A DNA stretch of 64,000 bases from Anaeroplasmataceae bacterium (GTDB taxonomy: Bacteria; Bacillota_I; Bacilli_A; Acholeplasmatales; Anaeroplasmataceae), in NCBI GenBank assembly GCA_031549865.1, contig JAVBPE010000018.1:20208-84207 (forward strand), read 5' to 3'. Positions 17,484 to 44,526 of the stretch are shown in pieces (the first letter of the stretch is position 1; each line of letters opens with the position of its first letter). The notes below the pieces were generated by a model. That model was not told where the DNA came from. It worked only from the letters and a program-made list of their open reading frames with translations, and searched no databases. Made by a program: the position numbers and the translations under genes.

Positions 17484-17656
17484 TAGAAACGAAAAACTTC
17501 AGGGCAGGGTGTAATTCCCGACCGGCGGTAAAGTCCGCGAGCGCAAGCTGATTAGGTGTAATTCCTAAACCGACAGTAGAGTCTGGATGGAAGAAGAATT
17601 TTCTAATTTTTAGAATTCATCTTTTTTGTCCTCCAGTTTTGGAGGACTTTTTCGTT
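17484..17656 (+). promoter_or_regulatory. FMN riboswitch (RFN element) with terminator
   Basis: Matches the RFN core: 'CAGGGCAGGGTGTAATTCCCGACCGGCGGTAAAGTCCGCGAGC ... GGTGTAATTCC ... ACCGACAGTAGAGTCTGGATGGAAGAAG'. The terminator is gtcctcca ... tggaggac followed by a T run. Confidence 0.9.
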
Positions 17657-23193: not shown

Positions 23194-23572
23194 GGGCTAG
23201 TTATGGATTCGCCGTGGTTGATAAAACTTTATAAGCACGTCATGGTTGCGCATGTAAAAACGCCGAGGTTAAAATAACCGCAAAAACAAATTTATTTGCA
23301 CGTTCTAATAATATGAACGTTGCATACGCTTGCTAATTTAAATAACGTAAGCTCTCAAATATAAGCTTTCCTATGGCTTATATCTTGGGATCACTATAAT
23401 AGGATATATTTAGTTCGTGCCACCTTAACGAACTAAATGAAAACAATAAGGTTAGCTATAATCTAGTATGCTTTTCTACAAGATTATAGTGAATTTAAAT
23501 GAAAAGCTAAACGTGTAGAAAGTAAAGCCTAGTTGGCTGCGTACGGGAGTTCGAGTCTCCCCTGGTCCACCA
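23194..23572 (+). ncRNA. ssrA: tmRNA (SsrA)
   Basis: The 5' GGGCTAG pairs with the 3' CTGGTCC, with a G3:U wobble (alanine identity), then ACCA. T-arm 'GGGAGTTCGAGTCTCCC'. The 'AAAATAACC|GCA AAA ACA ...' resume context resembles E. coli 'AAAATAGTC|GCA'. The candidate tag ORF is 23280-23336 (AKTNLFARSNNMNVAYAC, then stop). Confidence 0.9.
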
Positions 23573-23789: not shown

Positions 23790-23975
23790 CTGCTAGGGGT
23801 GCGTAAAAAAAGTTAAATAATTTTTTAAGCCACTTTAGACAGAATTTTCTCAATAAACAACTGTTTTGGCTACTCTAAATTGGATAAAAAGTTCATTTAA
23901 TATAAAGTTTCTCAAATCGCCCTTTTTGCAACTCTTAGTTGATTTGACATAGAAATTATTAGTGATAGAATTAAA

Positions 23976-24179
23976 GTGAATTTGCAGAGCTCGCTAATGA
24001 TATTCGGAAAGATGGTGATGTTGATGAACTTAACTAATGAAGAAACTAAAACACTTCTTGCAATATTAAAAACAGAAATTGTCGAAGTTGAAGACCTAAT
24101 TAAAAATGCAGATGTTGCAGATAAAGCTGAACTAGAAAAGCATTTAGTAATTGTGAAATCTATTAGTAAAAAAATATAA
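23976..24179 (+). CDS. Hypothetical small helical protein (start uncertain; 51-67 aa)
   Basis: ORF with several possible starts (GTG 23976, ATGs further in). Preceded by TTGACA-16-TAGAAT (about 23944-23971) and followed by a terminator. No clear RBS. Confidence 0.35.
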   Translation: MNLQSSLMIFGKMVMLMNLTNEETKTLLAILKTEIVEVEDLIKNADVADKAELEKHLVIVKSISKKI

Positions 24180-24186
24180 TCTTTTT

Positions 24187-24214
24187 CTCCAAGACCATTG
24201 TTTTGGAGTTTTTT
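24187..24214 (+). terminator. Terminator after the small ORF
   Basis: ctccaa pairs with ttggag, followed by T6. Confidence 0.55.
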
Positions 24215-24255
24215 ATTAAATTTTAAAAATAATCATATAAAATAGTGTTTTAGTA

Positions 24256-24284
24256 TTGACATACCAAATTTATTGTGATATAAT
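24256..24284 (+). promoter_or_regulatory. Near-consensus promoter of the R-M cluster
   Basis: TTGACA (24256-24261), 17 nt spacer, TGaTATAAT (24276-24284). The ORF-track TTG start at 24256 is this -35 box. Confidence 0.7.
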
Positions 24285-24309
24285 ACAATTACGATGGAGG
24301 TATACCAAA

Positions 24310-25905
24310 ATGATTAATAAATATTGGGTATTAGAAAGCTTATATAGAGCAACAGGAAATACAAATTCGATGGAGCCTATTTACAACGTATATAGAGTAT
24401 TAAAACTAAAAGAACTAGGGTTCGGATTAGAGTCAACGCCAGAAGACTTAATGTATGGGATGTATTCTGCAAATAGTTTTCCACCATTTAAAGGCGACGC
24501 TAGGAACTTTTATGAAATTTTTAAAATTATTTCTGGTTTTACAGTTGAAGGGTGCATTGATTATATAGAGTATATTCGTACCAGCCAGAAGAAATCTTCG
24601 GCTACTGAATTTATGATTCCAGATTCATTGGCAAAAATAATGATGAAATCCATTACTAATAGGGTATCAAAAATTTATATTCCGGATTGTGAAAAATACG
24701 GCATAGCATTTTACAATTTGATTAGTTCATACTCTGAATGTAAATTTTATACTTCTTGCGTGGATGCTGATCTGAAAAAGCTTTATCAACTATTATATGC
24801 ACATTTGAATGTTGAGTTTATAAATGCTGACATATACCGAGAAGACTTTGTGCATGAAAAGTTTGATATAATTATTTGCTTTCCTATCATGGGCGGTCGT
24901 TCGCTTATCGACAAAAGTGGTTTTATAAGTAATGAACCCGCCTTAATTGCAGCACAGAATTTGTTATATCATCTCTTTCCAGATGGAAATTTAACAATCG
25001 TATTACCGGCTAAAGTAACTTTTGGTGGTGGTGACGTTCAATACTTTAGAGATTATATAGATAGTAACTACAAGATTAATGAAATAAGTTCATTGCCAAA
25101 CAAATTATTTTATCCATACATGGCAATTAATACTTATTTATTTAACTTTTCAAATGGCGTAACAGAGGATATTATCTTACGTAAATATTCTCTTGAAAAA
25201 AACAATACAAGCGTTCTTCCTAAGTTAATAGTGGAAGATGAAAAGTTGTATTTTGAAGACGAATTTAGATCATTAAACGGCTGGTCTATTGATATGGCTT
25301 TTAATTCTAATGATGAAGAAATACTAAATTTCACAGAGTCACGAGTAAAAAAGAATCAGTTAAAAGATGTTGCAACCTTATTTAGAGGTAGAGCAATTAC
25401 TGAAAAAGCTGATGATGGTAATATTGCTATAATCAATATTTCAGATATTTCAGATACCGGCATTGATTATTCAAATTTATATTCTATTAATGAAGAAGAA
25501 CGTAAAATAAGCAGATATATTCTTGAAGAAGACGATGTGTTAATTACTGCCAGAGGAACGACTGTAAAAATCGCTGTGTTTAAAGAACAAACCAAGATTT
25601 GTATCCCGTCATCAAACATTATAGTTGCAAGAACAAACAAACTGTTAAAAGGCGCATATTTGAAACTCTTTTTAGAATCCAAGGTCGGCAGCAAGATGCT
25701 TAAGAACCTTCAAAGAGGCGCAACAATTGTAAACATTAATTATCAAGACGTTGAAATGATTGAAGTACCAGTTCCACCAATGGAAAAACAAGAAGAAGTT
25801 GTTGCTAACTATGAAGCTGGACTTGATTTGTATAAAAAAACAGTAACAGAAGCAGAAAAAGCTTGGAAGAAAATACAAGCAGTAATTGAAGATGAATTAT
25901 ATTAA
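24310..25905 (+). CDS. HsdM-like protein with degenerate catalytic motifs, fused to a single HsdS-type target recognition domain
   Basis: ATG at 24310 with ggagg 9 nt upstream. The N-terminal part aligns by eye with the two neighbouring HsdM proteins. 'EFMIPDSLAKIMM' aligns with 'EFYTPRTIVKLLV'. 'YIPDCEKYG' aligns with 'YDPACGTGG'. 'FDIIICFPIMGG' (CFPI at 24877-24888) aligns with 'FDCVIANPPFGL'. The C-terminal part is Methylase_S-like: 'LKDVATLFRGRAI ... DDVLITARGT ... GATIVNINYQDVEMIEVPVPPMEKQEE'. Confidence 0.7.
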   Translation: MINKYWVLESLYRATGNTNSMEPIYNVYRVLKLKELGFGLESTPEDLMYGMYSANSFPPFKGDARNFYEIFKIISGFTVEGCIDYIEYIRTSQKKSSATEFMIPDSLAKIMMKSITNRVSKIYIPDCEKYGIAFYNLISSYSECKFYTSCVDADLKKLYQLLYAHLNVEFINADIYREDFVHEKFDIIICFPIMGGRSLIDKSGFISNEPALIAAQNLLYHLFPDGNLTIVLPAKVTFGGGDVQYFRDYIDSNYKINEISSLPNKLFYPYMAINTYLFNFSNGVTEDIILRKYSLEKNNTSVLPKLIVEDEKLYFEDEFRSLNGWSIDMAFNSNDEEILNFTESRVKKNQLKDVATLFRGRAITEKADDGNIAIINISDISDTGIDYSNLYSINEEERKISRYILEEDDVLITARGTTVKIAVFKEQTKICIPSSNIIVARTNKLLKGAYLKLFLESKVGSKMLKNLQRGATIVNINYQDVEMIEVPVPPMEKQEEVVANYEAGLDLYKKTVTEAEKAWKKIQAVIEDELY

Positions 25906-25920
25906 AAGGAGTAGGAAAAT

Positions 25921-28326
25921 ATGCTAGGTGCAATTATAGGAGATATTGTTGGTTCAAGATATGAATTCAATAATGTCAAAACAAAAGAATTTGAATTTTT
26001 AAATTATAAATGCTTTTTTACAGATGATTCTGTAATGACAATGGCTATTGCGAAGGCAATCATTGAAAGTAAAAAAGACTACAGTGATCTAAATGAAAAG
26101 GCTGTAAAATATATGAGAACTATTGGACGTAACTATCCAGACTCAGGATATGGTGGAAGATTTTATGAATGGATGTTCTCTGATAATCCACAACCTTATA
26201 ATAGTTTTGGTAACGGAGCGGCAATGAGGGTTAGTGCTTGCGGATGGGTAGCAAATTCTATTAAAGAGGCCGTTATGCTTTCAAAGAGAGTTACTGAAGT
26301 TACGCATAATAACGCCGAGGGGATAAAAGGTGCTGAGGCGGTAGCTGTTGCAATATATTTGGCCAGAACTGGAAAAAATATTTTTGAAATTAGAGATTAT
26401 ATAAACAAAAATTATTATCCAATGAATTTTAGACTAGATGATATTCGTGAAACATATCAGTTCAATGAGACTTGTCAAGACACAGTGCCGCAAGCGATAA
26501 CTGCATTTCTAGAGTCGAATAGTTTTGAAGATGCAGTAAGAAATGCTGTTTCGATCGGAGGCGATAGCGATACATTGGCAGCCATAACTGGCAGTATTGC
26601 TGAAGCTTACTATGGGATTCCAACAGAAATTAAGAAGCATGCAATAACTTATTTAGACGAAAGATTGCTTGCAATTTTAACAGAGTTTGAAAATATATAT
26701 CCTTCACTTATGGAAAAAATTATTGAATCCAATAGTGTTGGAATAAAAACAAAAGAAAAATCTATTAAGAATGGAGGAAGATCAAAAATGATAGAAGACA
26801 CGATGAATAACGCAGACATTGATTTGCTTGAAAGTGAATTGTCTGCTGAAGAAATTTCTAGTAAAAAATTGTTTAATCATTTATTTGAGGCTTGCAACAT
26901 TCTTAGAGGGCCAATTAACCAAGATGAATACAAAAGTTATGTAACACCAATTTTATTTTTTAAGAGAATTTCTGATGTATATGATGAAGAAACCGAAAAA
27001 GCTTTAAACGATTCTGGAGGTGATGTGGATTTTGCTAGTTTTGATGAAAATCACAGTTTTGTTATTCCAGACAATTGCCATTGGAATGACGTTAGAGATG
27101 CAAGTTCTAACATTGGTACAGCTATTGTAAATGCAATGAGTGGCATTGAAAGGGCCAATCCTGATACCTTAAGTGGAATATTCAGTAGTTTTGATGATGC
27201 TACTTGGACAGATAAATCAAAACTATCTGATGAAAGGTTGAAAAATTTGATTGAACATATGTCCTCAATTAAAGTTGGAAACAATAATTATTCTGCAGAT
27301 GTAATGGGAGATGCATACGAATTTTTAATTAAAAAATTCGCAGATCTATCCAAGAAAAACGCTGGAGAATTTTACACACCTAGAACAATAGTAAAATTGC
27401 TAGTAAATTTACTTGATCCAAAACCAGGTGATGAGGTTTATGATCCTGCATGTGGAACTGGTGGTATGTTGATAGAAGCAATTCATCATATAAATAATGA
27501 TAGATTAACCTATGGAAGAATATATGGTCAAGAGAAAAATCTTGCCACATCAGCAATCGCTAGGATGAATCTATTTTTACATGGCGGTAAGGACTTTAAG
27601 ATATTACAAGGAGATACGCTTCGCAATCCAAAATTTTTAAGAGCAGGAAAAGTGCAAAAATTTGATTGCGTAATTGCAAATCCTCCATTTGGTTTAGATA
27701 AATGGGGTGCAGATCAATTTGAAGTAGATCCATATGGTCGTAACATATGGGGGACACCATCTGATACAAGCGCTGATTTTGCATGGCTTCAACACATGGT
27801 TTCATCAATGAAAAACAAAAATGGAAGATGTGCGGTAATTTTACCGCAGGGAGTGTTATTCCATGGTAGTAAAGCTGGGGAAATGCGAAATAAGCTCATT
27901 TCATCGGATGTAATTGAATGTGTGATCACTTTAGTTGGCGGCGTATTTTTTGCTGCAGGAGTAAATGCATGTATTTTACTATTAAATAATAATAAGCAAA
28001 ATGTGCACAAAGGGAAAATATGTATGATTGATGCAACAAAAATCTATACTGCAAAACGAGCACAAAATATAATGACAGAACAGAACATAGAGGAAGTATT
28101 TAAATTGTATCAGAACTATACAAATGTTATTGAAAAATGTGAGATTGTAGCGATAAAAGATTTATTAGATACATTAATGCCAAACGTCTATATAAAAAAA
28201 ATAATAGCTGGAAAAGTTTCATCATTAGAAATTAAAAAGCAATATATAATTAATTATGAAAAAATGGTTATTAGCGAAATGAAAGCGAAAAAACTTTTAT
28301 TAGAGGGAGGATACTTAGATGAGTAA
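25921..28326 (+). CDS. hsdM: ADP-ribosylglycohydrolase domain fused to Type I R-M methyltransferase subunit HsdM
   Basis: The first ~270 aa are ARH/DraG-like: 'MLGAIIGDIVGS', 'FTDDSVMT', 'GNGAAMRV', 'GGDSDT' (26557-26574). The rest has an HsdM_N-like 'ILRGPINQDEYKSYVTPILFFKRISDVYDEE', motif I 'DPACGTGG' and motif IV 'NPPF' (27679-27690). An in-frame GGAGGA-9 nt-ATG lies at 26773-26790. Confidence 0.8.
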   Translation: MLGAIIGDIVGSRYEFNNVKTKEFEFLNYKCFFTDDSVMTMAIAKAIIESKKDYSDLNEKAVKYMRTIGRNYPDSGYGGRFYEWMFSDNPQPYNSFGNGAAMRVSACGWVANSIKEAVMLSKRVTEVTHNNAEGIKGAEAVAVAIYLARTGKNIFEIRDYINKNYYPMNFRLDDIRETYQFNETCQDTVPQAITAFLESNSFEDAVRNAVSIGGDSDTLAAITGSIAEAYYGIPTEIKKHAITYLDERLLAILTEFENIYPSLMEKIIESNSVGIKTKEKSIKNGGRSKMIEDTMNNADIDLLESELSAEEISSKKLFNHLFEACNILRGPINQDEYKSYVTPILFFKRISDVYDEETEKALNDSGGDVDFASFDENHSFVIPDNCHWNDVRDASSNIGTAIVNAMSGIERANPDTLSGIFSSFDDATWTDKSKLSDERLKNLIEHMSSIKVGNNNYSADVMGDAYEFLIKKFADLSKKNAGEFYTPRTIVKLLVNLLDPKPGDEVYDPACGTGGMLIEAIHHINNDRLTYGRIYGQEKNLATSAIARMNLFLHGGKDFKILQGDTLRNPKFLRAGKVQKFDCVIANPPFGLDKWGADQFEVDPYGRNIWGTPSDTSADFAWLQHMVSSMKNKNGRCAVILPQGVLFHGSKAGEMRNKLISSDVIECVITLVGGVFFAAGVNACILLLNNNKQNVHKGKICMIDATKIYTAKRAQNIMTEQNIEEVFKLYQNYTNVIEKCEIVAIKDLLDTLMPNVYIKKIIAGKVSSLEIKKQYIINYEKMVISEMKAKKLLLEGGYLDE

Positions 28327-29815
28327 TAGAATTAAATTAGAAGATCTTGAAACATATTTATGGGATTCAGCGGTTTTATTGAGAACAAATATTGATGCTG
28401 GAGCATATAAGCAATATATTTTCCCTCTATTATTTTTCAAAAGAATTTGTGATGTTTATGATGAAGAAACAAATACTGCTTTTGATAAATATGGAAATGA
28501 TGCATTTGAATTTGATGAAGATGAATTGCACACTTTTATAATTCCTAAAGGATATCATTGGAATGATGTTAGAGAAACAACAGAAAATGTTGGTTTGTCT
28601 ATTATAACAGCATTTAGAAAAATTGAAAAAGCTAATAAAGAAAAACTACGTGGAGTATTTGGGGATGCCGCTTGGACTAATAAGAACAGATTACCAGACA
28701 AATTACTTAAGGATATTATAGAACATTTTAGCACTCAAACTTTATCCATTGAGAATTGTCCGGAAGATGAACTAGGACAAGGCTATGAATACTTAGTAAA
28801 GAAATTTGCTGACGATAGTGGACATACAGCACAAGAATTTTATACTAACAGAACTGTGGTTCATCTTATGACAGAAATGCTTCAACCAAAATCAGGAGAA
28901 TCTATATACGATCCGACATGTGGAAGTGCAGGCATGTTAATTTCCGCTATTGCATATCTGAAGTTGAAAGGTGCAGAATGGAGAAATGTCTCTATATATG
29001 GTCAAGAGATAAATTCATTATCATCTTCAATAGCAAAAATGAACCTTTTTCTACATGGCGTAAAAGATTTTAATATCGTAAATGATGACACTCTTGCTAT
29101 GCCTGCGTTTATAGAAAAAGGGAAATTAAAACAATTTGATATGGTCCTAGCAAATCCACCATATTCTATAAGCCAATGGGATAGAAAAGCATTTGAATCT
29201 GATAAATATGGTAGAAACTTCTTAGGTGTTCCGCCACAAGGTCGAGCTGATTATGCATTTATTCAACATATTCTTAAAAGCATGAGCTCTCAAAGTGGAA
29301 GATGCGCTATTTTATTACCTCATGGTGTTTTAAGTAGAAATGAGGAAAAAATAATAAGAGAAAAACTTCTTAAAGCAGATTTGTTAGAATGTGTTGTGGG
29401 TATTGGCAAAAATTTATTCTATAATAGTCCAATGGAAGCATGCATTATGATTTGTAGAACAAGAAAGCCAAAAGACAGAGTTGGTAAAGTGCTTTTTATA
29501 AATGCTAAAAACGAAATTACTAGAAAAGATTCCTTTAGTTACTTAGAAAACAAACATATAGAAAAAATTGTAGAGGCTTATAATAATTTTGACAAAATAA
29601 ATAATTTTGCAGAAGTTGTTAGTATTGGTGATTTGTTATCAAATAATTCATCTTTGAGTATCGGATATTATGTGAATCATATTGTCGAAAAGGCGAATGA
29701 TAAAGGTTTTAGTATCACTGATTGTTATTTAGAATGGATTAGTACTTCTGAAAAAATTAATGAAAAAATGTCAAATATTGTCGATTTGATAAAAGGTGGT
29801 GTTGACAATGAGTAA
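28319..29815 (+). CDS. hsdM: Type I R-M methyltransferase subunit HsdM (second paralogue)
   Basis: 'LFFKRICDVYDEE', 'EFYTNRTVV', 'DPTCGSAG' and 'NPPY' (29153-29164). Its start overlaps the upstream stop by 8 nt. Confidence 0.9.
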   Translation: MSNRIKLEDLETYLWDSAVLLRTNIDAGAYKQYIFPLLFFKRICDVYDEETNTAFDKYGNDAFEFDEDELHTFIIPKGYHWNDVRETTENVGLSIITAFRKIEKANKEKLRGVFGDAAWTNKNRLPDKLLKDIIEHFSTQTLSIENCPEDELGQGYEYLVKKFADDSGHTAQEFYTNRTVVHLMTEMLQPKSGESIYDPTCGSAGMLISAIAYLKLKGAEWRNVSIYGQEINSLSSSIAKMNLFLHGVKDFNIVNDDTLAMPAFIEKGKLKQFDMVLANPPYSISQWDRKAFESDKYGRNFLGVPPQGRADYAFIQHILKSMSSQSGRCAILLPHGVLSRNEEKIIREKLLKADLLECVVGIGKNLFYNSPMEACIMICRTRKPKDRVGKVLFINAKNEITRKDSFSYLENKHIEKIVEAYNNFDKINNFAEVVSIGDLLSNNSSLSIGYYVNHIVEKANDKGFSITDCYLEWISTSEKINEKMSNIVDLIKGGVDNE

Positions 29816-30959
29816 AATTAAATTAGGTGATGTATTAATTAGGGTGAAAGAATCGGTAGATAAAGATAATACTGATTTAGTTTATTATATTGGTGGAGAG
29901 CATTATGAATCAAGATCACTTACAATTAATAATAAAGGCAAAATAGAAGGTAGTACAATAGGCCCAGCTTTTAGCACAAAGTTCAAAGCGGGTGATGTAT
30001 TGTTAATGTCAAGAAATCCTCATTTAAGAAAAGCTGGAATTGTGAATTTTGATGGTATCTGTTCAGACGTAAGCTACATCATAAGAACTAAAGATGAAAA
30101 TGTTGTAATGCAGCAGTTTATTCCTATTTTATTTCAAAGCGATCTTTTTTGGGATTTTGCTGAAAAAAATAAAAAAGGATCAACTAATTTTTTCTTAAAT
30201 TGGAGTGATTTCGAAAGATTTGAGTTTGAATTGCCTACTTTGGATAAACAACAACAGTTAGTTAATGTTTTATGGGCTATAAATGACAATGTAGAATGTT
30301 ATAAGGAAATGCTATTGCAAAATGATAAATTAATTAGAGCAGAATTCGACGAAATGTGTGAAAACATAAAAGAAACTATTTCTTTAGCAGATTGTTGCAA
30401 AATCCATGCAAGAATTGGCTGGCAAGCATTGACAAAAAAAGAGCATTTAACCTCAGGAGAATTTTTGCTAATAACCGGTACTGATTTTTTAGATGGTGAA
30501 ATAAATTATTCAACCTGCGTCTATGTTTCTGAAGACAGGTACAAAATGGACGAACATATAATTTTAAAAGAGAATGATGTGCTTGTTACTAAAGATGGAA
30601 CGATTGGAAAAGTGGCAATTGTTCGTAATTTACCAAAACCTGCAACATTAAATAGTGGAATATTCGTTATAAGGCCAGATGATAGATTTAATAAAGAATT
30701 TATCTCATATGTTTTTACTGGTCCTGTCTTTGCAGAATTTGTTGATAAAGTTAAAACTGGAGCAACAATTAAGCACTTAAATCAAAATAAAATGTTGCAA
30801 TTCAAGATACCTCTTCCAACATATAAAAAGCAAGAAGATTTTGCAAAATTTGTTTGCATGATAATGGAAATTAAAAGATCATTGCAAGAAGGAATAATCC
30901 ATTTAAATAATGTTTATCAAAGAATCGTAAATCAAAATCTATCATTAAAGGAGGAATAA
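29808..30959 (+). CDS. hsdS: Type I R-M specificity subunit HsdS (two TRDs)
   Basis: I prefer the ATG at 29808, which overlaps the hsdM end. Two Methylase_S-like halves each end in a conserved helix: 'LPTLDKQQQLVNVL' and 'LPTYKKQEDFAKFV'. Confidence 0.85.
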   Translation: MSKIKLGDVLIRVKESVDKDNTDLVYYIGGEHYESRSLTINNKGKIEGSTIGPAFSTKFKAGDVLLMSRNPHLRKAGIVNFDGICSDVSYIIRTKDENVVMQQFIPILFQSDLFWDFAEKNKKGSTNFFLNWSDFERFEFELPTLDKQQQLVNVLWAINDNVECYKEMLLQNDKLIRAEFDEMCENIKETISLADCCKIHARIGWQALTKKEHLTSGEFLLITGTDFLDGEINYSTCVYVSEDRYKMDEHIILKENDVLVTKDGTIGKVAIVRNLPKPATLNSGIFVIRPDDRFNKEFISYVFTGPVFAEFVDKVKTGATIKHLNQNKMLQFKIPLPTYKKQEDFAKFVCMIMEIKRSLQEGIIHLNNVYQRIVNQNLSLKEE

Positions 30960-30960
30960 T

Positions 30961-33876
30961 ATGTCAGTATTTAATGAAGACAATACAATAGAGCAAATGA
31001 TCATTGCCACATTAAGTAGCAACGGCTGGAAGTTTGTTTCACCTGAAGACTTGAATCGTGAATTATCTGATGTGATGGTTGAATCAATGGTTAAGGATGC
31101 CTTAATTAGATTAAATCCTGAAATTGCGGAAGAACCGTCTCGTGCCGATGAAGTAATTTATAAGCTTCGTACATTGATTAATAGTGTTCAGGCACACAAT
31201 TTGGTCACTCAAAACGAAACATTTAAAAAATGGATCTTTGAAGAAAATTCTTATCCATTTGGTAAAGATGGAAGAATGGTACCAATCAGATTCTTTGGTA
31301 CCATAACAAAAGAAAACCTTAGCTTAAATGAATATGTAGTTACTAATCAATGGTCGTATCCTTGCGATGAAGGTGGAAAAAGACTAGACATTGTGCTTTT
31401 AATCAATGGATTTCCTATTGCGATTGGTGAATTAAAAACGCCGGTTCGTAGTGCTATTTCTTGGGTTGATGCTGCTTCGGATATTTTGAGTTATGAAAAA
31501 AGCATTCCTCAAATGTTTGTAACTAATGTATTCAATTTTGCAACAGAAGGAAAGTGTTTTAGATATGCAGCAATAAATGCAAACATGAATTTATGGGGAC
31601 CTTGGCATACAGATACACATAAAATTGAAGGCGGGTTAGCTGACGTTAAAATTAGTATTGAAGATATGATTACTCCTGAAAAAATAATGGATATTTTCCA
31701 ATTCTTCACAATGTTTGCAACGGATAAGAAATATAGAAAATATAAGATTATATGTCGCTATCAACAATATGAAGGAGCGAATTCTATAGTTCAAAGAGTT
31801 TTGACCGGATATCCAAAGAAGGGCTTGATATGGCATTTTCAAGGTTCTGGTAAATCGCTACTTATGGTATTTGCAGCACAAAAACTACGTATGGTTCCTG
31901 AATTAAGAAATCCAACAGTAGTAATAGTAGATGATCGTATTGATCTTGAAACACAAATTACCGCTACATTTAATGCATCAGATATTCCGAATCTTGCAAG
32001 CGCTGGTTCTAAAGAAGAGTTGATATCTTTCTTTAAGGGAGATATGCGAAAAATACTTATTACAACAATATTTAAATTTGGCGAAGTCGAAGGTGAATTA
32101 AATAGACGTGACAATATTATATTAATGGTTGATGAAGCGCATAGAACTCAAGAAGGTAATCTTGGTGAAAAAATGAGGCTTGCACTTCCAAACGCATTTT
32201 TCTTTGGATTAACTGGTACGCCAATTAATAGAGTTGACCGTAATACATTTGCAACTTTTGGTGCAGATGAGGATAGAAGCGGCTATATGAGCAAATATTC
32301 ATTCTCAGATTCTATTAGAGACAAAGCTACCTTACCTCTAAACTTTGAACCAGTTCCGGTGGACTTGCATGTTGATAAGGACACTTTGGATACAGAGTTC
32401 GATGTTTTAACGGAAAGCCTAACAGAGGAGCAAAGGGCGCAACTATCAGCAAGAGTAAACATGAAAGCAATATTTTATAGCCCTGCTCGTATTAAGAAAG
32501 TCTGCGAGCATATTGTAAAACACTACAGAGAGAAAATCGAGCCAAATGGTTATAAAGGACAAGTTGTGTGTTATGACCGAGAATGTTGTATCCGCTATAA
32601 AGAAGAATTTGACAAATTAATGGGTGAAGAAGAAACAACTGTAGTTATAGATACGAATAGCGATAAGGAAGATAGATATAAAAAGTTTAGACGAGATAGA
32701 GATGAAGAAGGACGAGTTCTTGATTCATTTAGGGATCCTAAAAGCTCATTAAAACTTGTAATTGTTACGGCAAAACTATTAACTGGCTTTGACGCTCCAA
32801 TTTTACAAGCAATGTATCTTGATAAACCGATGAAAGATCACACATTGTTACAAGCTATTTGTAGAACTAACCGTACTTATGATGAAGGAAAAACACATGG
32901 ATTAATTGTTGACTACACTGGTATTTTTGATAATGTGGCAAGAGCATTAGACTTCGATGAAAACACTATGAAGAAAATTATTTCTAACATTGAAGAAATA
33001 AAGAAACAATTACCTGCCTTGCTAAAAAAATGTTTGAGTTACTTTATGGGTGTGGATCGCACTGTACAGGGTTGGGAAGGTTTAATGGCTGCACAGGAGT
33101 GCCTACCAACTAACAAAGAAAAAGATGCTTTTGCTGCAGATTATAGAGTGTTAAACAGAGCATGGAATGCATTATCACCAGACGATTTCTTATTTCCATA
33201 TAGCGTTGATTATCAGTGGCTTTCAAAAGTTTACGAATCAGTTAAACCAACTGATGGAACTGGAAAATTAATCTGGAGTACTCTCGGACCAAAGACAATT
33301 GAATTGGTGCACAGAAATATATCTGTTGGAGCAGTCCATGATAATGAAGAAATACTAACGCTTGATGCCAATTTAATTGATGAGTTCATTTCAAAGAATG
33401 GCGATATTAAGAAAGCAACGAAGAAAATTGAAATTAGCCTGGTTTCCAAAATATTAGGACATAGCAACGAGCCGAGATTTGTAAAACTTGGTGAGAAACT
33501 TGAGGCTCTGCGTGAAAAACATGAGCAAGGATTAATCACTAGTATAGAATTCTTAAAGTTACTTTTGGAATTGGCAAAAGAAGCTGCACAAGCAGAAAAA
33601 GAATACGTGCCTGAAGATGAAGTGAATAAAGGTATCGCTGCTCTGACAGAATTGTTTAATAGCGTCAAAAATAGAGCAACTCCAATTATCGTTGAACGCA
33701 TTGTAAAAGATATTGATGACATAGTTAGAATTGTTAGATTCGATGGTTGGCAAAACACAACAGCAGGTAAGCAGGAAGTAAAAAAGGCGTTAAGAAGTGT
33801 TGTATGGATTAAATACAAGATTAAAGATATTGATGTATTTGATAAGTCATACAAGTATATAGAACAATACTATTAA
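30961..33876 (+). CDS. hsdR: Type I restriction enzyme R subunit HsdR
   Basis: N-terminal PD-(D/E)xK 'RLDIVLLINGFPIAIGELK', SF2 motif I 'FQGSGKSL', motif II 'MVDEAHRTQ', motif VI 'QAICRTNR'. The C-terminal helical domain is typical of HsdR. 971 aa. Confidence 0.9.
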   Translation: MSVFNEDNTIEQMIIATLSSNGWKFVSPEDLNRELSDVMVESMVKDALIRLNPEIAEEPSRADEVIYKLRTLINSVQAHNLVTQNETFKKWIFEENSYPFGKDGRMVPIRFFGTITKENLSLNEYVVTNQWSYPCDEGGKRLDIVLLINGFPIAIGELKTPVRSAISWVDAASDILSYEKSIPQMFVTNVFNFATEGKCFRYAAINANMNLWGPWHTDTHKIEGGLADVKISIEDMITPEKIMDIFQFFTMFATDKKYRKYKIICRYQQYEGANSIVQRVLTGYPKKGLIWHFQGSGKSLLMVFAAQKLRMVPELRNPTVVIVDDRIDLETQITATFNASDIPNLASAGSKEELISFFKGDMRKILITTIFKFGEVEGELNRRDNIILMVDEAHRTQEGNLGEKMRLALPNAFFFGLTGTPINRVDRNTFATFGADEDRSGYMSKYSFSDSIRDKATLPLNFEPVPVDLHVDKDTLDTEFDVLTESLTEEQRAQLSARVNMKAIFYSPARIKKVCEHIVKHYREKIEPNGYKGQVVCYDRECCIRYKEEFDKLMGEEETTVVIDTNSDKEDRYKKFRRDRDEEGRVLDSFRDPKSSLKLVIVTAKLLTGFDAPILQAMYLDKPMKDHTLLQAICRTNRTYDEGKTHGLIVDYTGIFDNVARALDFDENTMKKIISNIEEIKKQLPALLKKCLSYFMGVDRTVQGWEGLMAAQECLPTNKEKDAFAADYRVLNRAWNALSPDDFLFPYSVDYQWLSKVYESVKPTDGTGKLIWSTLGPKTIELVHRNISVGAVHDNEEILTLDANLIDEFISKNGDIKKATKKIEISLVSKILGHSNEPRFVKLGEKLEALREKHEQGLITSIEFLKLLLELAKEAAQAEKEYVPEDEVNKGIAALTELFNSVKNRATPIIVERIVKDIDDIVRIVRFDGWQNTTAGKQEVKKALRSVVWIKYKIKDIDVFDKSYKYIEQYY

Positions 33877-33897
33877 AATTTAAGGGAGGTGAACTGC

Positions 33898-35817
33898 ATG
33901 AGTTGCAATTCTGTTGAGAAATATATCGAAAACAAATATCGTGATTATATATTTTCTAAGATTTTAAAATTTTACAATGAAATAAAAAGTCATTTAGATA
34001 TGCATACTTATGCAGTTCCATATCCAACTTTTATAACATTAGACGAAATTACGGTAGAAAAGGTGTATTTTAAGGATGATATATTTGGAAAGAATCTTGA
34101 GTTCAAATTAGTTGTTAGAGCAGATTTTATTCTTAAAGGAGATCGCTTTAATGATTATGAGACAGATACACTTTACCGTAAGTTTACTGTTACGGGTACA
34201 GGAATTTTAAATAATGGAATTAGCAAATTCTACATTTCTGATGTTGAAGAGTATATAAATCAAGCGTATCAATATAAACATGCCTTGTCTGCGTTTGCTA
34301 TTCCATATATTTCAACGGATGATTTAGAATATAGAGCAGAAGAGTTTTTGACTAAGCATTGTAAAGAAGCACTTGAAGAACCGATGCAGTTACCATTAAA
34401 TAAAATTTTGATCAATATGAATGTAACTGTCTTTCATGCACCGTTAGGCAAAAGAATATTTGGAAAAACATTTTTTGCTCAATCAACTGAAAAAATTTAC
34501 AATGATGATAATGAAGTAGAAGATAAGCAAATATACGAAAGAACTATTTTAATAGATCCAGATGTGTTTTTCTTTAGAAATATAGGAACTTATAATAATA
34601 CAGTTATTCATGAGTGTATCCACGTGGAATATCATTCTAATTATTTTGAGCTTCAAAAACTAATAAATAGTTCATTAAAATCAATTGCATGTAAGGTTAA
34701 CAAGGGTTCAAAACAATTGAATACTAATGAACAAAAAGCACTAGATTTTATGGAATGGCAAGCAAGTATGTTGGCACCAAGAATACTGATGCCTGCGAAA
34801 ACAACAAAAATCAAATATCAGCAATTAATATCTGAAATTAATCAAGATTTCCCGTCATATCTAAAAGGAAAAAAGATGGAGATTTTGATTGACAGGTTAG
34901 CAGAGTTTTTTCAAGTCTCAAAACAAGCTGCAAAAATAAGACTTATAGATTTAGGCGTTGATGCTGCTGCTGGTGTGCAAAACTATGTAAATGGCAAAAA
35001 GATTCCTAGTTTTGCATTTAAAAGTCATTCTTTAAATCGTAATCAAACATTCATAATTGATTTTAAAGATTCAGTTAAAGAAATTAAAGTTAATCAAACG
35101 TTAAATTCACTTTCAATCGAAGGAAAGCTAGCATACATAAACGGAATGGTTGTGCTAAACTTACCGAAATATGTTATTAAAGATGATTTCGGTAATAAAG
35201 TTCTGACAAACTATGCTTTGGAGCATGTTGATGAATGTGCGTTTGTCTTTACAAAAGATACCTCACCAAACAAGAACACTTACAGTGAATATTTAGACAC
35301 AATGTGTTTTCTCTGCAGGCCAGAAAGCAAAGATGACTATGTTTCTGGTAACTATGATAGGACTTCAACTTCCAACAGACAACTTGAAAATGCCGGAATA
35401 TCCTTTTTAGATGAGTTAGACGATATTCATAATGCTAAAGCGTTGCTAAAAAAGATGAACGGAGAGTTTGCTGAAGATTTTCTAACTGTTGTAACTGAAT
35501 TAGGATATTTGAAATCAGATGGAATTCCCAATTATTATGCTATTTCTAAATTAACAAGTGTAACAGACCATACTATAAAGAATTATTTGGATGGTACAAG
35601 CACGCCACAAAAAGAAAAGTTGATAGCTATTTGCGGAGGATTATGTTTACATACAAAAGTGGCATATAAACTTCTTGAAAAAGCTAATCTTACAATTTTA
35701 AATAGTATGAATGAAACTGATCTTACTTATTGTGCTCTGATTGAAAGACATTACGATGAAGGTCTTGAAAAATGGAATGAATATTTAAGCGAAGCTAATT
35801 TTAATCAACTACCTTAA
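33898..35817 (+). CDS. Large ImmA/IrrE-type (M78, HExxH) metallopeptidase-domain protein with C-terminal XRE-like HTH
   Basis: I prefer the ATG at 33898 (gggagg 8 nt upstream), 21 nt after hsdR. Has 'HECIH' (34609-34623) and a downstream 'MEWQASMLAPRILMP' matching the ImmA ExxAxxFAxxLLMP block. The C-terminal 'ISKLTSVTDHTIKNYLDGTSTPQKEKLIAICGGL' is HTH-like. The N-terminal ~230 aa is unassigned. Confidence 0.65.
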   Translation: MSCNSVEKYIENKYRDYIFSKILKFYNEIKSHLDMHTYAVPYPTFITLDEITVEKVYFKDDIFGKNLEFKLVVRADFILKGDRFNDYETDTLYRKFTVTGTGILNNGISKFYISDVEEYINQAYQYKHALSAFAIPYISTDDLEYRAEEFLTKHCKEALEEPMQLPLNKILINMNVTVFHAPLGKRIFGKTFFAQSTEKIYNDDNEVEDKQIYERTILIDPDVFFFRNIGTYNNTVIHECIHVEYHSNYFELQKLINSSLKSIACKVNKGSKQLNTNEQKALDFMEWQASMLAPRILMPAKTTKIKYQQLISEINQDFPSYLKGKKMEILIDRLAEFFQVSKQAAKIRLIDLGVDAAAGVQNYVNGKKIPSFAFKSHSLNRNQTFIIDFKDSVKEIKVNQTLNSLSIEGKLAYINGMVVLNLPKYVIKDDFGNKVLTNYALEHVDECAFVFTKDTSPNKNTYSEYLDTMCFLCRPESKDDYVSGNYDRTSTSNRQLENAGISFLDELDDIHNAKALLKKMNGEFAEDFLTVVTELGYLKSDGIPNYYAISKLTSVTDHTIKNYLDGTSTPQKEKLIAICGGLCLHTKVAYKLLEKANLTILNSMNETDLTYCALIERHYDEGLEKWNEYLSEANFNQLP

Positions 35818-35825
35818 AAAAGTTT

Positions 35826-35950
35826 CTCGTAATGTATTACGAGTATAAAAACAATAAATTTAATAAATCTATAGGCTTTATGTCAAATCTAGTATTCTAG
35901 AAGAGGCATAAAGCCTTTTTTTATGCTTTAAGGCTCGTAATAGATTACGA
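35826..35950. repeat. Two copies of the palindrome CTCGTAAT-NN-ATTACGA
   Basis: Copies at 35826-35843 (ctcgtaatgtattacgag) and 35934-35950 (ctcgtaatagattacga) bracket the cluster terminator. Confidence 0.8.
35873..35922 (+). terminator. Strong terminator closing the R-M cluster
   Basis: 10-bp stem aggctttatg / cataaagcct with an inner 5-bp stem tctag / ctaga, followed by T7. Confidence 0.8.
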
Positions 35951-36215: not shown

Positions 36216-36854
36216 ATGACTAAAACGAAAAAAACAAAGGATTTATATCCGAACATCTATGGCTACGGTAGCCTAGAACAACTAATGGCAGATCCAACAA
36301 GGTTTGGTGATAACCCAGACAAGCCACTAACAAGTTGGACAGCTTATAAAGATGCTGATGGCGACACGAGGTTTGTGCCATGCACAGAGGAGTTCTTTCA
36401 TTATATGAGAAATGAGGAACGCAACGACAGGAGGAAGAAGGACATCGAATCAAGATGTATGATCCCGTCTGAGAAATATGGGTTAGTAAAGTGTAGAGAA
36501 GATTGCAATCATTGTCCTTATAAGCAGAATGAGCTTGAGCCAGATGCTACAACGGATTTTGCTAGAACTGGAATAGCGGTATCTATTGATTACATGTATG
36601 AAAATTATGAATTTGAGTTTAGTGATGGTTCGTTTGAGGCTGATTGTGAAAAAAGAGAAAAGGAAGAACGTGACGCAGAAATGTGGAGACTTATTGACGA
36701 GTTAGGCGAAACAGACCAGACCATATTAAAACTTTACAACCAAGGTAAGACTGATGCTGCAATAGCTCTTGTTGTTAAGAAATCTCGAAGTGTTGTTCAG
36801 GAACGCAGAGTTAAACTAATCGACATGTTGAAAGAAAAATTGAAAAATTTTTGA
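36216..36854 (+). CDS. Phage protein with Cys-rich centre and C-terminal sigma-70 region-4-like HTH
   Basis: 'ETDQTILKLYNQGKTDAAIALVVKKSRSVVQERRVKLIDML' resembles sigma r4/LuxR-type HTH. 'CREDCNHCPY' is a Cys cluster. Confidence 0.55.
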   Translation: MTKTKKTKDLYPNIYGYGSLEQLMADPTRFGDNPDKPLTSWTAYKDADGDTRFVPCTEEFFHYMRNEERNDRRKKDIESRCMIPSEKYGLVKCREDCNHCPYKQNELEPDATTDFARTGIAVSIDYMYENYEFEFSDGSFEADCEKREKEERDAEMWRLIDELGETDQTILKLYNQGKTDAAIALVVKKSRSVVQERRVKLIDMLKEKLKNF

Positions 36855-36945
36855 AACTAGTCGGCAAACCATAAGTTACTTAGCCATTAATCCTTTGAGA
36901 AGGAAGTGTAGCCCTTTTCTAAAAAATTAAAAAGGAGGAATCGCT

Positions 36946-37125
36946 ATGCAAGACAAAGCAATGGCTAACAAAAAGCCGTTTCTAACTGCAAATGATTTGA
37001 TAGAAAGTTTGCTGATAATAAGTGAAACGACAAAAACGTTAGCGCTAGAAGTTATGTTGCTTCCAGCAGAACAAAACAAAGATGGAGGTGAAGAAGATGT
37101 CAACATCTCCAACAAAGCACAGTAG
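36946..37125 (+). CDS. Hypothetical small phage protein (59 aa; below the ORF-track cutoff)
   Basis: ATG at 36946 with aggagg 6-7 nt upstream. Open for 59 codons to the TAG at 37123-37125. Overlaps the next gene start. Confidence 0.4.
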   Translation: MQDKAMANKKPFLTANDLIESLLIISETTKTLALEVMLLPAEQNKDGGEEDVNISNKAQ

Positions 37126-38281
37126 GAAGTACAGCCCAAGTAAAAGTAGCACGTGGCTTAATTGTCCTTTGAGTACGTTGTTAAATGATGGATCAAGTCA
37201 AGAAACAAATCCACAAGCTGAATTTGGAACACAATGCCATGAACTTAGCGCAGCGTTGATTTGCAAATCACTTAACATAGTTGATTTTGACAATGAACCG
37301 ATGTCAGTTAACGAGATTGTTAAGGGATTAGATATATATTCGCCGGAAATGCAAGACCTTGCCGATGGATATGCAGACTATGTAATTAACACTGTTGAGT
37401 ATGAAAAAAAGATGTCAAGCAGCGAGCCATTAGTAGTAGTTGAGCAGTATCTTGAAATGGATTTTGATGCTGATGCAGGTGGAACACTTGACTGTGGCAT
37501 TATTTCAAGTTCAAACGGTGGAACATTGACAGTTATAGACCTAAAGACTGGTAGAGGTCCAGTTGCTGCTTTCAATTCAGAGACAGGTATGTTTAATACT
37601 CAGCTAGGTATTTATGCACTGTATTTTTACAAAGCATACAAGGACATTTACCCAATCAAAAATGTGCGACTTGTTATCTATCAACCTGTGATTTCCAACA
37701 CTAACGATTTTGAAATGTCTATCGAAGATTTACTAAAATTTGAAACTGATATTTTAATCCCTGCAGTAGCAAAAACAAAGGTAAGTATACCTGAAGCAAA
37801 AAGTGGTAGTTACTGCAAATGGTGTGCTGGAAAAGCAATCTGCATTCAACGAGCAGAAGACAATATGAAACTTATTAAAGAGGCAAGTAAACCCTTAGAA
37901 AAAATGACAGACAATGAAATTGAAAAGTTGCTACCAAAGATGGACGAGCTGATTTCATTTGCAGAAGACGTCAAAGAATCTGCACTCAAGAAAGCATTAA
38001 ACGGACATAAGTGGAGGAATTTCAAACTCGTTCATACCAAGTCTACAAGAAAAGTATCTGACGAAGATGCAGTTATCAAAGTATGTGAGGATGCTGGATT
38101 TGATCCATATGCACCTAAAAAACTGGTTGGTATTACAGAACTTACAAAGCGATTAGGTAAAGACAAATTTAATGAGTTAATTGGAAACTATCTAACAAAG
38201 CAAGAAGGCGCAATTGTTTTAGTTCCAAGTGCAGATGCTCGTGACGAAGTAATTATCTTAAAAGAAGGAGAAAAAAATTAA
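37097..38281 (+). CDS. PD-(D/E)xK nuclease, Cas4/DUF2800-like
   Basis: I prefer the ATG at 37097 (ggagg 8 nt upstream). Has 'YSPSKSSTWLNCPLS', 'LDCGII ... VIDLKTG' (D ... DxK) and a C-terminal 'CKWCAGKAIC' (four-Cys pattern). Confidence 0.7.
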   Translation: MSTSPTKHSRKYSPSKSSTWLNCPLSTLLNDGSSQETNPQAEFGTQCHELSAALICKSLNIVDFDNEPMSVNEIVKGLDIYSPEMQDLADGYADYVINTVEYEKKMSSSEPLVVVEQYLEMDFDADAGGTLDCGIISSSNGGTLTVIDLKTGRGPVAAFNSETGMFNTQLGIYALYFYKAYKDIYPIKNVRLVIYQPVISNTNDFEMSIEDLLKFETDILIPAVAKTKVSIPEAKSGSYCKWCAGKAICIQRAEDNMKLIKEASKPLEKMTDNEIEKLLPKMDELISFAEDVKESALKKALNGHKWRNFKLVHTKSTRKVSDEDAVIKVCEDAGFDPYAPKKLVGITELTKRLGKDKFNELIGNYLTKQEGAIVLVPSADARDEVIILKEGEKN

Positions 38282-39240
38282 TGTTAAACATTACTACGGG
38301 TAAAGAACAACGCCCATTAAAAGTTGTCATTTATGGTCCTGAAGGAATAGGAAAAAGCACATTTGCTAGTCAGTTTCCGAGCCCAATATTTATTGATACT
38401 GAAGGTGGGACAAGCAATTTGGATATCAGAAGAATTAAATGCAATAAATCATGGAATGAGCTTATTTCAATAGTCAATGAAATTATTACAACACCGAACA
38501 TTTGCAAGACGCTTGTAATAGACACTGCAGATTGGTCAGAGATTTTATGTATTAATTCAGTTTGTGAGAAGTACCGAAAAAGCAATATTGAGGATTTTGG
38601 ATTTGGAAAGGGATATGTGTACTTGCAAGACGAGTATTCAAAACTACTTTCACTATTAGACAAGGTAATTGATGCAGGAATTAATGTTGTGGTTACCGCT
38701 CATGCAAAGTTAAGAAAATTTGAACTTCCGGAGGAACAAGGTGCTTTTGACAGATATGAAATGAAACTTACAAAGCAAGTGGCACCGTTGCTAAAAGAAT
38801 GGTGCGACACATTATTGTTTTGCAATTACAAGATTTATGTTGTCACAACGGAAAACAATTCTAAAAAAGCGCAAGGTGGCAAACGAGTTTTATACACAAC
38901 TCATAATCCAACATATGACGCCAAGAACCGCTTTAATTTGGCGGAAGAACTTGAACTTGATTTCGCATCGGTAGCGCACCTTTTTGCGGCACAGGCGCAA
39001 ACACAGGCCGACACAAAGCCAGTTGTATTTCAAGAGCAAACAGTTATTAACAAGCTAATCAAAATGATTGAAGATGCAGGTATAGCAGAAGACGATATCA
39101 AAAAAGTAGTAGCAGCTCGTGGCCACTATCCAGAGAGTGCAGCGATAACTGAATATTCAGAAGATTTTATAACACGATGGATAATTCCAAATTGGAAGAA
39201 GATCGTAGAAACAATTAATAAAGAAAAAGGAGAGAACTAA
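38281..39240 (+). CDS. AAA_24/Sak4-like RecA-fold ATPase
   Basis: Walker A 'IYGPEGIGKSTF' and Walker B-like 'TLVIDT'. Typical phage replication/recombination module position. Confidence 0.7.
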   Translation: MLNITTGKEQRPLKVVIYGPEGIGKSTFASQFPSPIFIDTEGGTSNLDIRRIKCNKSWNELISIVNEIITTPNICKTLVIDTADWSEILCINSVCEKYRKSNIEDFGFGKGYVYLQDEYSKLLSLLDKVIDAGINVVVTAHAKLRKFELPEEQGAFDRYEMKLTKQVAPLLKEWCDTLLFCNYKIYVVTTENNSKKAQGGKRVLYTTHNPTYDAKNRFNLAEELELDFASVAHLFAAQAQTQADTKPVVFQEQTVINKLIKMIEDAGIAEDDIKKVVAARGHYPESAAITEYSEDFITRWIIPNWKKIVETINKEKGEN

Positions 39241-39242
39241 TT

Positions 39243-39704
39243 ATGAACAACAATAATGATATGTTAATGGATTGGAATGATGCCATTGAAACCGACGGAC
39301 AGGAATTTGTCCTACTTCAAGAAGGTGATTATAACTTCTTGGTAACTAATTTTGAAAGAGGTCGCTTTCCAGGTGGGCCTAAAGTTCCAGCTTGCAATAA
39401 AGCAACTATTACAGTGCAAGTTCAAACAGCAAATGGCGCAGCTACAGTTAAATTTGATTTGTTGCTTTATCGCTCACTTGAATGGCGCATATCTGCATTC
39501 TTTAGATGTATTGGTCAGAAAAAGCATGGTGAAAAATTGACAATGGAATGGAATAAGGTGGTTGGATCTATTGGTAGAGCGCACTTCAAACAACGTTCTT
39601 ACACCAATCAATATGGAGACGAGAAGTATGTTAATGACCTAGATCGTTTTATTGATTACAATCCAGAATTTTTTGTTAATGATGATCCTTCGTTACCGTT
39701 CTAG
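39243..39704 (+). CDS. Phage protein, DUF669-like (usual partner of AAA_24)
   Basis: Called from position and size after the AAA_24 gene. No catalytic motif. Assignment tentative. Confidence 0.45.
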   Translation: MNNNNDMLMDWNDAIETDGQEFVLLQEGDYNFLVTNFERGRFPGGPKVPACNKATITVQVQTANGAATVKFDLLLYRSLEWRISAFFRCIGQKKHGEKLTMEWNKVVGSIGRAHFKQRSYTNQYGDEKYVNDLDRFIDYNPEFFVNDDPSLPF

Positions 39705-39715
39705 AGGTGAGTAAT

Positions 39716-41293: not shown

Positions 41294-41305
41294 GAGGAGT
41301 ATTAA

Positions 41306-43318: not shown

Positions 43319-43500
43319 ACCGGCAGCTGCCAAGAGTAAAAAATGCAATTTGGCACAAAGGAAAAAATCACATATCCGCCAGCTGGCAAAAAACTGGCGG
43401 AAAGGGCTTATATATAGGTGTTGACACCAGCCGCTGACGCATCGTTTGTAGAATAGGGCCTAAAGCCAGCCCTATTCCAAACAAATGCATCAACGTCAGC
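43304..43500. repeat. Cluster of repeats and palindromes between primase and rusA
   Basis: The 12-mer CTGGCGGAAAGG occurs at 43304-43315 and 43394-43405. 10-bp palindromes GGCAGCTGCC (43322-43331) and GCCAGCTGGC (43378-43387). A long imperfect hairpin spans 43433-43500, with outer stem gctgacg/cgtcagc and inner stem gaatagggc/gccctattc. Confidence 0.8.
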
Positions 43501-43536
43501 CAGTGCCTTTCTGCAAAAAAAGAAACGGAGAAAAGT

Positions 43537-44378: not shown

Positions 44379-44526
44379 GCAAGGCTGAATAATTGTGAGA
44401 TTGTCAAGAGTGTGATATCATTATAATAGGCGAAAGCTATAGATAATGCAGGCTCTGGAGGAGAAATCTTCGAGGGCTTTTTTAATGCAAAAATCAAGGA
44501 AACTTGTTAGGTTTCCTGATCTTAGA

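Follow-up and report, generated by a model that had tools for sequence, protein, structure and literature searches.

A prophage-borne Type I restriction-modification module of the PacII type, headed by a pseudo-methyltransferase gene with a putative operator

Control of Type I restriction-modification (R-M) is usually regarded as post-translational, with few transcription regulators dedicated to it. The described systems closest to the locus analysed here form a subgroup with a heterodimeric M1M2S methylase. According to the sections of Morgan et al. 2016 (PMC5100572) drawn on here, M1 (motif NPPF) makes N6-methyladenine (m6A) and is encoded first, whilst M2 (motif NPPY) makes N4-methylcytosine (m4C) and adjoins S, which is followed by R. 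More than 300 such m4C/m6A systems were, by the same account, already held in REBASE by 2016. We analysed a 64,000-nucleotide stretch of DNA from an Anaeroplasmataceae bacterium (contig JAVBPE010000018.1, positions 20,208 to 84,207; referred to as the window), in which six forward-strand genes, g1 to g6, display the same NPPF-NPPY order as PacII-type systems (PMC5100572; 7vru/7vs4, Zhu et al. 2022, PMC9613975, again in the sections used), with M2 adjoining S and R downstream. However, M1 here carries an N-terminal ADP-ribosylglycohydrolase (ARH), the operon is headed by a conserved pseudo-methylase gene that has a single target recognition domain (TRD) and its own putative operator, and the whole is carried on a prophage. 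Neither a g1-like gene nor an ARH fusion is mentioned in the examined sections of the PacII-type literature (PMC5100572, PMC9613975). The best explanation of the locus is a prophage-borne mobile Type I R-M module of five conserved genes, the sixth gene being the prophage's. The conserved unit consists of g1 with its putative operator, M1, M2, S and R, ordered either g1-M1-M2-S-R or g1-R-M1-M2-S (order B); ARH, although optional, is present as a rule, and g6 is an incidental neighbour.

Three further groups of proteins offer comparisons for g1. The C proteins, including HsdC of a Mycoplasma hsd operon (Fisunov 2017, PMC5282649), are, like g1, encoded by the first gene of their operon and have a conserved repeat operator at their own promoter or next to it, which implies that a mobile R-M system regulates itself. 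However, C proteins are small helix-turn-helix (HTH) proteins, whereas g1 is a 531-aa protein without an HTH that would read DNA with Type I TRDs, and its candidate operator, RGTAT-N4-ATACY, is neither the C-box nor (GTGTTAN5)2 (PMC5282649). By analogy, g1 would work like an R-M controller without belonging to the C-protein family. The second is Esub1 (SpyM3_0890; 8vsq/8vsr) of Streptococcus pyogenes, a half-S protein found to be homodimeric by crystallography and size-exclusion chromatography with multi-angle light scattering, whose authors suspected a role in transcription control, as a transcription factor (Muna et al. 2024, PMC11754733). Esub1 resembles the C-terminal part of g1 in having one TRD, an insertion helix and a single long conserved-region helix, but is a stand-alone protein of ~200 aa encoded away from hsd genes, whereas in g1 a dead methylase domain of 330 aa precedes this part, and the gene heads a Type I operon beside a candidate site. 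Finally, the fused M-plus-half-S gamma-class adenine methyltransferases (MTases), namely the Vibrio vulnificus enzyme 7eew, CamA, M.TaqI and the Type IIG enzyme BpuSI, have the same fold and the same order of parts as g1 (helical N-terminus, Rossmann MTase domain, TRD). In contrast to these enzymes, the g1 family is without the glycine loop that binds S-adenosylmethionine (SAM) and without the (N/D/S)PP(Y/F/W) motif.

Operon layout and the PacII-type core

The cluster is made up of g1 (24310–25905, 531 aa), g2 (25921–28326, 801 aa; ARH fused to HsdM M1, NPPF), g3 (28319–29815, 498 aa; HsdM M2, NPPY), g4 (29808–30959, 383 aa; HsdS, with two TRDs in Pfam and PADLOC searches), g5 (30961–33876, 971 aa; HsdR, with a PD-(D/E)XK N-terminal domain and an SF2 motor) and g6 (33889 or 33898 to 35817, 642 or 639 aa; an HExxH protein, ImmA/IrrE-like). 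The intergenic spacings are 15, −8, −8, 1 and 12 or 21 nt, the last depending on the start chosen for g6. The mechanical open reading frame (ORF) of g1 begins at TTG 24256, in the −35 box; its true start is the ATG at 24310, which is preceded by GGAGG. A sigma-70-type promoter on the forward strand (24256–24284, TTGACA-17-TATAAT with an extended −10 TG) matches 12/12 consensus positions, and a forward-strand intrinsic terminator (35873–35922), formed by a hairpin at 35873–35915 and a following U7, closes the operon (folding dG −23.5 kcal/mol, z −4.4). An initial annotation, made from the sequence alone, had described six co-directional and co-transcribed genes between a near-consensus promoter and a strong terminator. 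The ORF coordinates, the promoter match and the folding bear this out: the cluster is real and the six genes are probably one transcript. The consensus match alone is weak evidence for a promoter, since such sites are no commoner in this AT-rich window than in shuffles of it (72 observed versus 67 expected). The promoter is credible because the same promoter, at the same position, is conserved in related loci.

The genes g2–g5 run in the order expected of a PacII-type system, with M2 adjoining hsdS and hsdR downstream (spacings −8, −8 and 1 nt). Profile searches of g2 returned ADP_ribosyl_GH (123 bits), HsdM_N and N6_Mtase, and those of g3 HsdM_N and N6_Mtase; motif IV reads ANPPFG in g2 and ANPPYS in g3. 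Against the PDB, g2 was best matched by 7vru_A, the M1 subunit of PacII (442 bits, against 388 bits for 7vru_B), and g3 by 7vru_B, the M2 subunit (523 bits, against 400 bits for 7vru_A), whilst HsdM structures from single-M systems scored far lower against both (at most 189 bits). The best PDB match of g4 was the PacII S subunit 7vru_C (E 1.6e−21), with dense identity across TRD1 (residues 3–170), so far as sequence goes a resemblance to the cytosine-side TRD of PacII S. g5 scored 482 bits against TIGR00348, above the curated cut-off, and contains HSDR_N, SWI2_SNF2 and T1R_D3 domains. From the NPPF/NPPY order, the reciprocal best PacII matches, the S TRD1 and the HsdR score, g2–g5 is therefore, on homology, a PacII-type M1M2SR system of the m6A/m4C subgroup, with g2 the predicted m6A subunit and g3 the predicted m4C subunit. 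Two points weigh against this assignment: the C-terminal part of g2 and g3 are 41% identical over 459 aa, slightly under the 45–55% given for M1-M2 pairs of characterised m4C/m6A systems in the sections of PMC5100572 used, and the division into m4C and m6A is drawn from homology. The initial annotation had treated three M-like modules in one operon as a puzzle. It dissolves for two of them, as two HsdM subunits are the published design of this subgroup (PMC5100572, same sections). Across loci, HsdS was hypervariable (24–48% identity), whilst HsdR was 77–86% identical across loci and phyla.

The ARH3-like ADP-ribosylglycohydrolase domain occupies the N-terminal 267 aa of g2 (25921–26721, forward strand; PF03747, 123.3 bits versus a cut-off of 26.2), and a flexible linker of ~45 aa joins it to HsdM_N. 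Residues E15, T34, D35, D36, D214, D216 and T217 of g2 align with catalytic and metal-binding residues of ARH3 (Glu41, Thr76/Asp77/Asp78 and Asp314/Asp316/Thr317), and the motifs GDIVGSRYE, FTDDS and GGDSDT match the ARH3 motifs GDxxGSxYE, TDD and GGDxDT. The g2 domain thus keeps the Glu and the two Asp/Thr metal-binding motifs of the ARH3/DraG family, but differs from that family in being compact (~265 aa) and flexibly linked to a DNA methyltransferase subunit. In most loci of the module the ARH domain is 61–79% identical. Dozens of genomes share the fusion, which is therefore no artefact of assembly, and the ARH-HsdM fusion proposed in the initial annotation is genuine. ARH is absent from the alphaproteobacterial versions of the module and from locus L028. 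Stand-alone ARH proteins that are 68–79% identical to the g2 domain are extremely common, to the point of saturating the search, and occur on mobile elements. Amongst the stand-alone copies inspected (L058–L063), one lies beside McrBC and another, in a different genome, beside SSB in a large mobile element; these contexts suggest that the ARH domain by itself is a mobile accessory of defence or anti-defence. Because the domain is optional and has common, close stand-alone relatives, it has the look of an accessory enzyme, itself mobile, that became tethered to M1 recently. It is reasonable to guess that the predicted hydrolase takes ADP-ribose off DNA or off the complex. Our literature search on ARH together with HsdM or R-M returned nothing relevant, which does not show that the fusion is undescribed.

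The pseudo-methyltransferase g1 and the palindrome at the operon promoter

The product of g1 combines a gamma-class N6-MTase fold that has lost motifs I and IV, a single Esub1-type TRD and a C-terminal dimerisation helix. Profile searches identified a partial N6_Mtase domain and one Methylase_S TRD (PF01420, residues 346–498), and the matches in Pfam, NCBIfam and PADLOC were to MTase and TRD families only. The motif I position reads DCEKYG and the motif IV position CFPIMGGR. The full-length family shares these features, with a SAM loop like DCEKYG and a motif IV like (C/S)-x-P-x-(F/M)-G-x-R. Amongst 78 relatives of at least 400 aa, an intact motif IV occurred at that position in three, all distant proteins of 707–1573 aa (CNPPFG, ANPPWG and AAPPLG) that look like true methylases. 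Judged by these motifs, g1 is a family-wide catalytically dead pseudo-enzyme, and the initial annotation had been right to call it dead and to give it a single TRD. Because the loss is family-wide, the alternative that g1 is a recently decayed methylase was rejected. The family includes more than 200 full-length relatives at 45–55% identity and forms ~100 clusters amongst 1.84 billion representatives, its members being full-length, 28–60% identical and alike in many invariant residues. A tblastn search of g1 against sequenced phages gave no match, and one against plasmids gave generic TRD matches only.

The AlphaFold2 (AF2) model of g1 (mean per-residue confidence, pLDDT, 86) shows an MTase fold, a TRD and a helix at residues 491–530. 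Foldseek matched the model to 7eew (the top match), CamA, M.TaqI, BpuSI and Esub1, with E values of 1e−14 to 8e−21 for the fused methylases at a sequence identity of 10–15%, and we infer descent from a fused M-plus-half-S methyltransferase. Residues ~344–527 align end to end with Esub1 (E 2e−37, ~38% identity, template modelling score 0.86–0.89) across the TRD, the R..RY insertion helix (RK-isRY in g1) and the dimerisation helix, so that g1 would, as Esub1 does, dimerise through its C-terminal helix. In the family alignment the TRD is one of the best-conserved parts of g1, unlike the TRDs of true HsdS (24–48% identity), and this conservation implies a constant ligand. In Streptococcus, two loci (L056, 9992–10585, and L057) encode a stand-alone Esub1-like half-S of 197 aa that is 39% identical to the g1 TRD, with no hsd genes nearby.

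A candidate for this ligand, missed in the initial annotation, overlaps the operon promoter. The 20-bp palindrome TTTAGTAT-TGAC-ATACCAAA (24250–24269) has the −35 hexamer at its centre and is a putative operator for a g1 dimer. Its core, RGTAT-N4-ATACY, occurs exactly once in the window, at 24252–24265, where 0.29 occurrences are expected. A dimer of a single-TRD half-S protein reads a symmetric bipartite site whose half-sites lie about one helical turn apart. We aligned the 400 bp upstream of g1 from 45 non-redundant loci, drawn from Clostridia, Bacilli, Mollicutes, Paenibacillus, Brevibacillus, Erysipelotrichaceae and metagenome-assembled genomes of rumen Alphaproteobacteria. The palindrome, with the consensus TTTRGTAT-N4-ATACYAAA (20 bp), was present upstream of g1 in 43/45. 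In nearly every g1 locus there is one copy, just 5' of g1; a single mismatch occurs in L027 and in the viral contig L071, and L053 has a perfect copy ~1.8 kb upstream of g1. Eight of nine viral contigs that carry g1 also have it. The palindrome is present with or without g6, ARH or prophage, whilst in the single M1M2S locus that lacks g1 (L079) it is absent as well. In the window and in other loci from Clostridia and Mollicutes the palindrome is centred on the −35 hexamer TTGACA; in all remaining loci it stops 8–16 bp upstream of a separate TTGACA. On this evidence, g1 dimers probably bind the palindrome and autoregulate the operon, and regulation at the −35-centred sites would be repression. 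The finding moves g1 away from the decoy or effector role first proposed for it and towards regulation.

Several observations weigh against autoregulation by g1. The pairing of g1 with its operator is drawn from co-occurrence and geometry, and the DNA bound by Esub1 could not be established by Muna et al. (PMC11754733). No RGTAT-N4-ATACY palindrome was found near the Streptococcus Esub1-like genes (L056/L057). About one-third of loci have the palindrome not on the −35 box but upstream of it, so the sign of regulation may differ between loci and simple occlusion may not hold. Finally, a regulatory role gives no reason for selection to keep a methylase-like domain of 330 aa, which suggests an extra role for g1, for example in contacting HsdR, HsdM or a ligand.

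What that extra role could be was considered in two ways. In one, which would extend autoregulation rather than replace it, g1 senses or soaks up anti-restriction proteins that mimic DNA, Ocr and ArdA being examples; the mimic would bind in the M2S-like groove of the g1 dimer and pull it off its operator, and the operon would be derepressed during attack. This would account for the retention of the whole M-like domain, and it fits the top structural match, 7eew, which was crystallised with Ocr in its DNA groove, as well as the inhibition of PacII by Ocr and ArdA described in the sections of PMC9613975 used. We nevertheless consider it unlikely, as it is entirely inferential and the operator already explains the conservation of the TRD. 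In the other, the g1 dimer mimics M2S without its catalysis, docks HsdR and adds a second, methylation-independent specificity, directed for example at modified or foreign DNA with GGTA-N6-TACC-like sites, the promoter palindrome being secondary. Selection on the large M-like domain is again consistent with this, g1 shares its complete M-plus-half-S architecture with fused methylases of the 7eew type, and g1 directly adjoins HsdR in order-B loci. However, an unmethylatable site on the host chromosome at the operon promoter would invite self-restriction, and the site is conserved, as one copy in one place, rather than avoided; moreover, L069 retains g1 despite the loss of HsdR. We therefore hold HsdR docking to be quite improbable.

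Autoregulation by g1 was also set against the possibility that another host or prophage factor binds the palindrome and that g1 is a decaying, functionless relic of a fused methylase. Catalysis has indeed been lost in g1, and many regulators bind at promoters, as a factor bound to the palindrome would. Yet g1 is intact and full-length in its ~100 clusters, with many residues invariant at 28–60% identity, the palindrome accompanies g1 across phyla whether or not g6, ARH or the prophage is there, and all loci have no other sequence-specific binder in common. We give this possibility very little credence.

The sixth gene, the prophage and variants of the module

The initial annotation described g6 as a Zn-peptidase/HTH protein belonging to the R-M system. 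The peptidase part held, if narrowly: Peptidase_M78 (PF06114) scored 22.5 bits, marginal to its cut-off of 22, a match to capP in PADLOC was weak (E 3e−6), and the HExxH residues H241, E242, H245 and H249 are invariant in 22 homologues. The HTH part was not confirmed by profile searches, which returned no HTH match. The C-terminal region of the AF2 model (residues 549–635) is helical, and a Foldseek search with the model gave no significant PDB match, the DdrO matches (E 0.24) being non-significant. More than 600 g6 homologues sit first in an early region with the order g6–sigma-like–DUF2800. This order recurs in L006–L009, L069 and L073–L085, and L008 and L009 have g6 and the prophage early genes with no R-M genes, whilst g6 does not follow HsdR in most R-M modules found on chromosomes. 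In viral contigs of IMG/VR, R-M lies upstream of g6–sigma–DUF2800, often with a recombinase and spare hsdS genes in between. We read g6 as the prophage's ImmA-like regulator, co-transcribed here, and not as a component of the R-M system. Two fusions were considered as Rosetta-stone evidence for a functional link and rejected: an ARH::g6 fusion (P0155) is a deletion derivative and an S::g6 fusion (P0156) an ORF at the edge of a shufflon, next to the same prophage genes.

These observations bear on the overall view taken in the initial annotation, in which an enlarged Type I super-complex has g1, ARH and g6 as integral subunits that serve in sensing, as decoys or as effectors, and g6 gates it as a protease. 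The genes are closely spaced between a single promoter and a single terminator, g1 and ARH occur beside hsd genes in dozens of genomes, and the match of g6 to capP, weak as it is, is to a class of protease that regulates defence operons. The expected co-localisation of the extra components with hsd genes was thus found for g1 and ARH, but g6 followed the prophage. It occurs with prophage early genes in the absence of R-M, is missing from most R-M copies and, in order-B loci, is separated from R-M by the recombinase and spare hsdS genes. Furthermore, ARH is missing from the alphaproteobacterial and L028 versions, and M1M2S and R of the PacII type function with no partners of this kind (PMC5100572, PMC9613975, in the sections used). 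A super-complex of this kind is accordingly doubtful, and the five-gene module with a prophage-owned g6 remains the reading we prefer.

The genomic surroundings agree with carriage on a prophage. The R-M cluster and the start of the prophage follow directly after a transfer-messenger RNA (tmRNA) gene (23194–23572, forward strand; ARAGORN; Rfam 161 bits), which itself lies downstream of rnr-smpB. Downstream of the cluster, at 36216–54381 on the forward strand, prophage genes encode a sigma-like protein, a DUF2800 nuclease, AAA_24, helicase, primase, MetK, a ParB-MTase, TerL, portal and capsid. The tmRNA gene is the probable integration site of the R-M-carrying prophage. A second copy of the tmRNA 3' end (attR) was sought within the window and none was found; the far end of the prophage therefore lies beyond position 64000.

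Elsewhere, in L002 and L019, g1 has tRNA genes immediately upstream, as it has the tmRNA gene in the window, which fits insertion of the module as prophage cargo, and the 77–86% identity of HsdR across phyla fits recent horizontal spread. Several loci depart from the full complement. L006 (4990–7404) has g1-HsdR-ARH::g6, a deletion having removed the M1 core, M2 and S; L069, with no HsdR, is methylase-only and retains g1, ARH-M1, M2 and S; and L079 comprises ARH-M1-M2-S without g1. In L001, L003, L007, L013 and L074–L083, a tyrosine recombinase and spare hsdS genes follow hsdS, especially in the order g1-R-M1-M2-S. This arrangement is a phase-variable specificity shufflon, and the copy in the window has none.

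Other features of the window were noted. At 46753–49046 the prophage encodes a complete SAM synthetase, MetK, with three Pfam domains, and metK lies directly upstream of, and overlaps, a gene with ParB_N and N6_N4 DNA methylase domains; MetK may be a phage device that secures SAM for methylation. Between the tmRNA gene and the R-M promoter is an ORF of 67 aa (23976–24179) with its own terminator (region 23944–24208) and a near-consensus promoter, TTGACA-16-TAGAAT. A T-box leader and a flavin mononucleotide (FMN) riboswitch (15482–15721 and 17491–17602) precede housekeeping genes, and both are ordinary.

Proposed mechanism and its meaning

In the mechanism we propose, the M1M2S heterotrimer would mark one half-site with m6A and the other with m4C, whilst HsdR would restrict unmodified DNA. 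The two identical, conserved TRDs of a g1 dimer would read RGTAT-N4-ATACY. Because the operon's only promoter has this site on its −35 box in the window, g1 bound there would repress its own operon, a form of negative autoregulation. It would be an analogue of the C proteins that holds a mobile R-M system at a safe, copy-number-independent level. The R-M cargo would have been inserted between the attachment-site end at the tmRNA gene and g6, and g6 would therefore be read through from the R-M promoter in the window. The ARH tethered to M1 would probably strip an ADP-ribose mark, on DNA or on the complex, that would block the system.

A bolder version can be stated, although we think it unlikely to hold in full. 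In this version g1 would be the first case of Type I specificity hardware, a TRD and conserved helix on a dead methylase scaffold, serving as a transcription factor. Its M2S-like groove would sense DNA mimics such as Ocr or ArdA, which would take g1 off the operator so that R-M rises during attack, whilst ARH would erase ADP-ribosylation imposed by the phage. The whole would be a self-regulating R-M system with counter-counter-defence.

The composition of the locus is unusual and conserved. The design with two HsdM subunits was already known; what is new is the hypothesis of a pseudo-methylase-TRD controller with a conserved operator, together with the ARH fusion, neither of which was found described in the literature searched. 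The pairing of g1 with the palindrome across many phyla provides a concrete, testable model of how a mobile Type I system would be held in check. The model also offers a candidate DNA site, RGTAT-N4-ATACY, and a candidate function for Esub1-type half-S proteins. Finally, the abundant ARH-HsdM fusion links ADP-ribosylation to restriction-modification.

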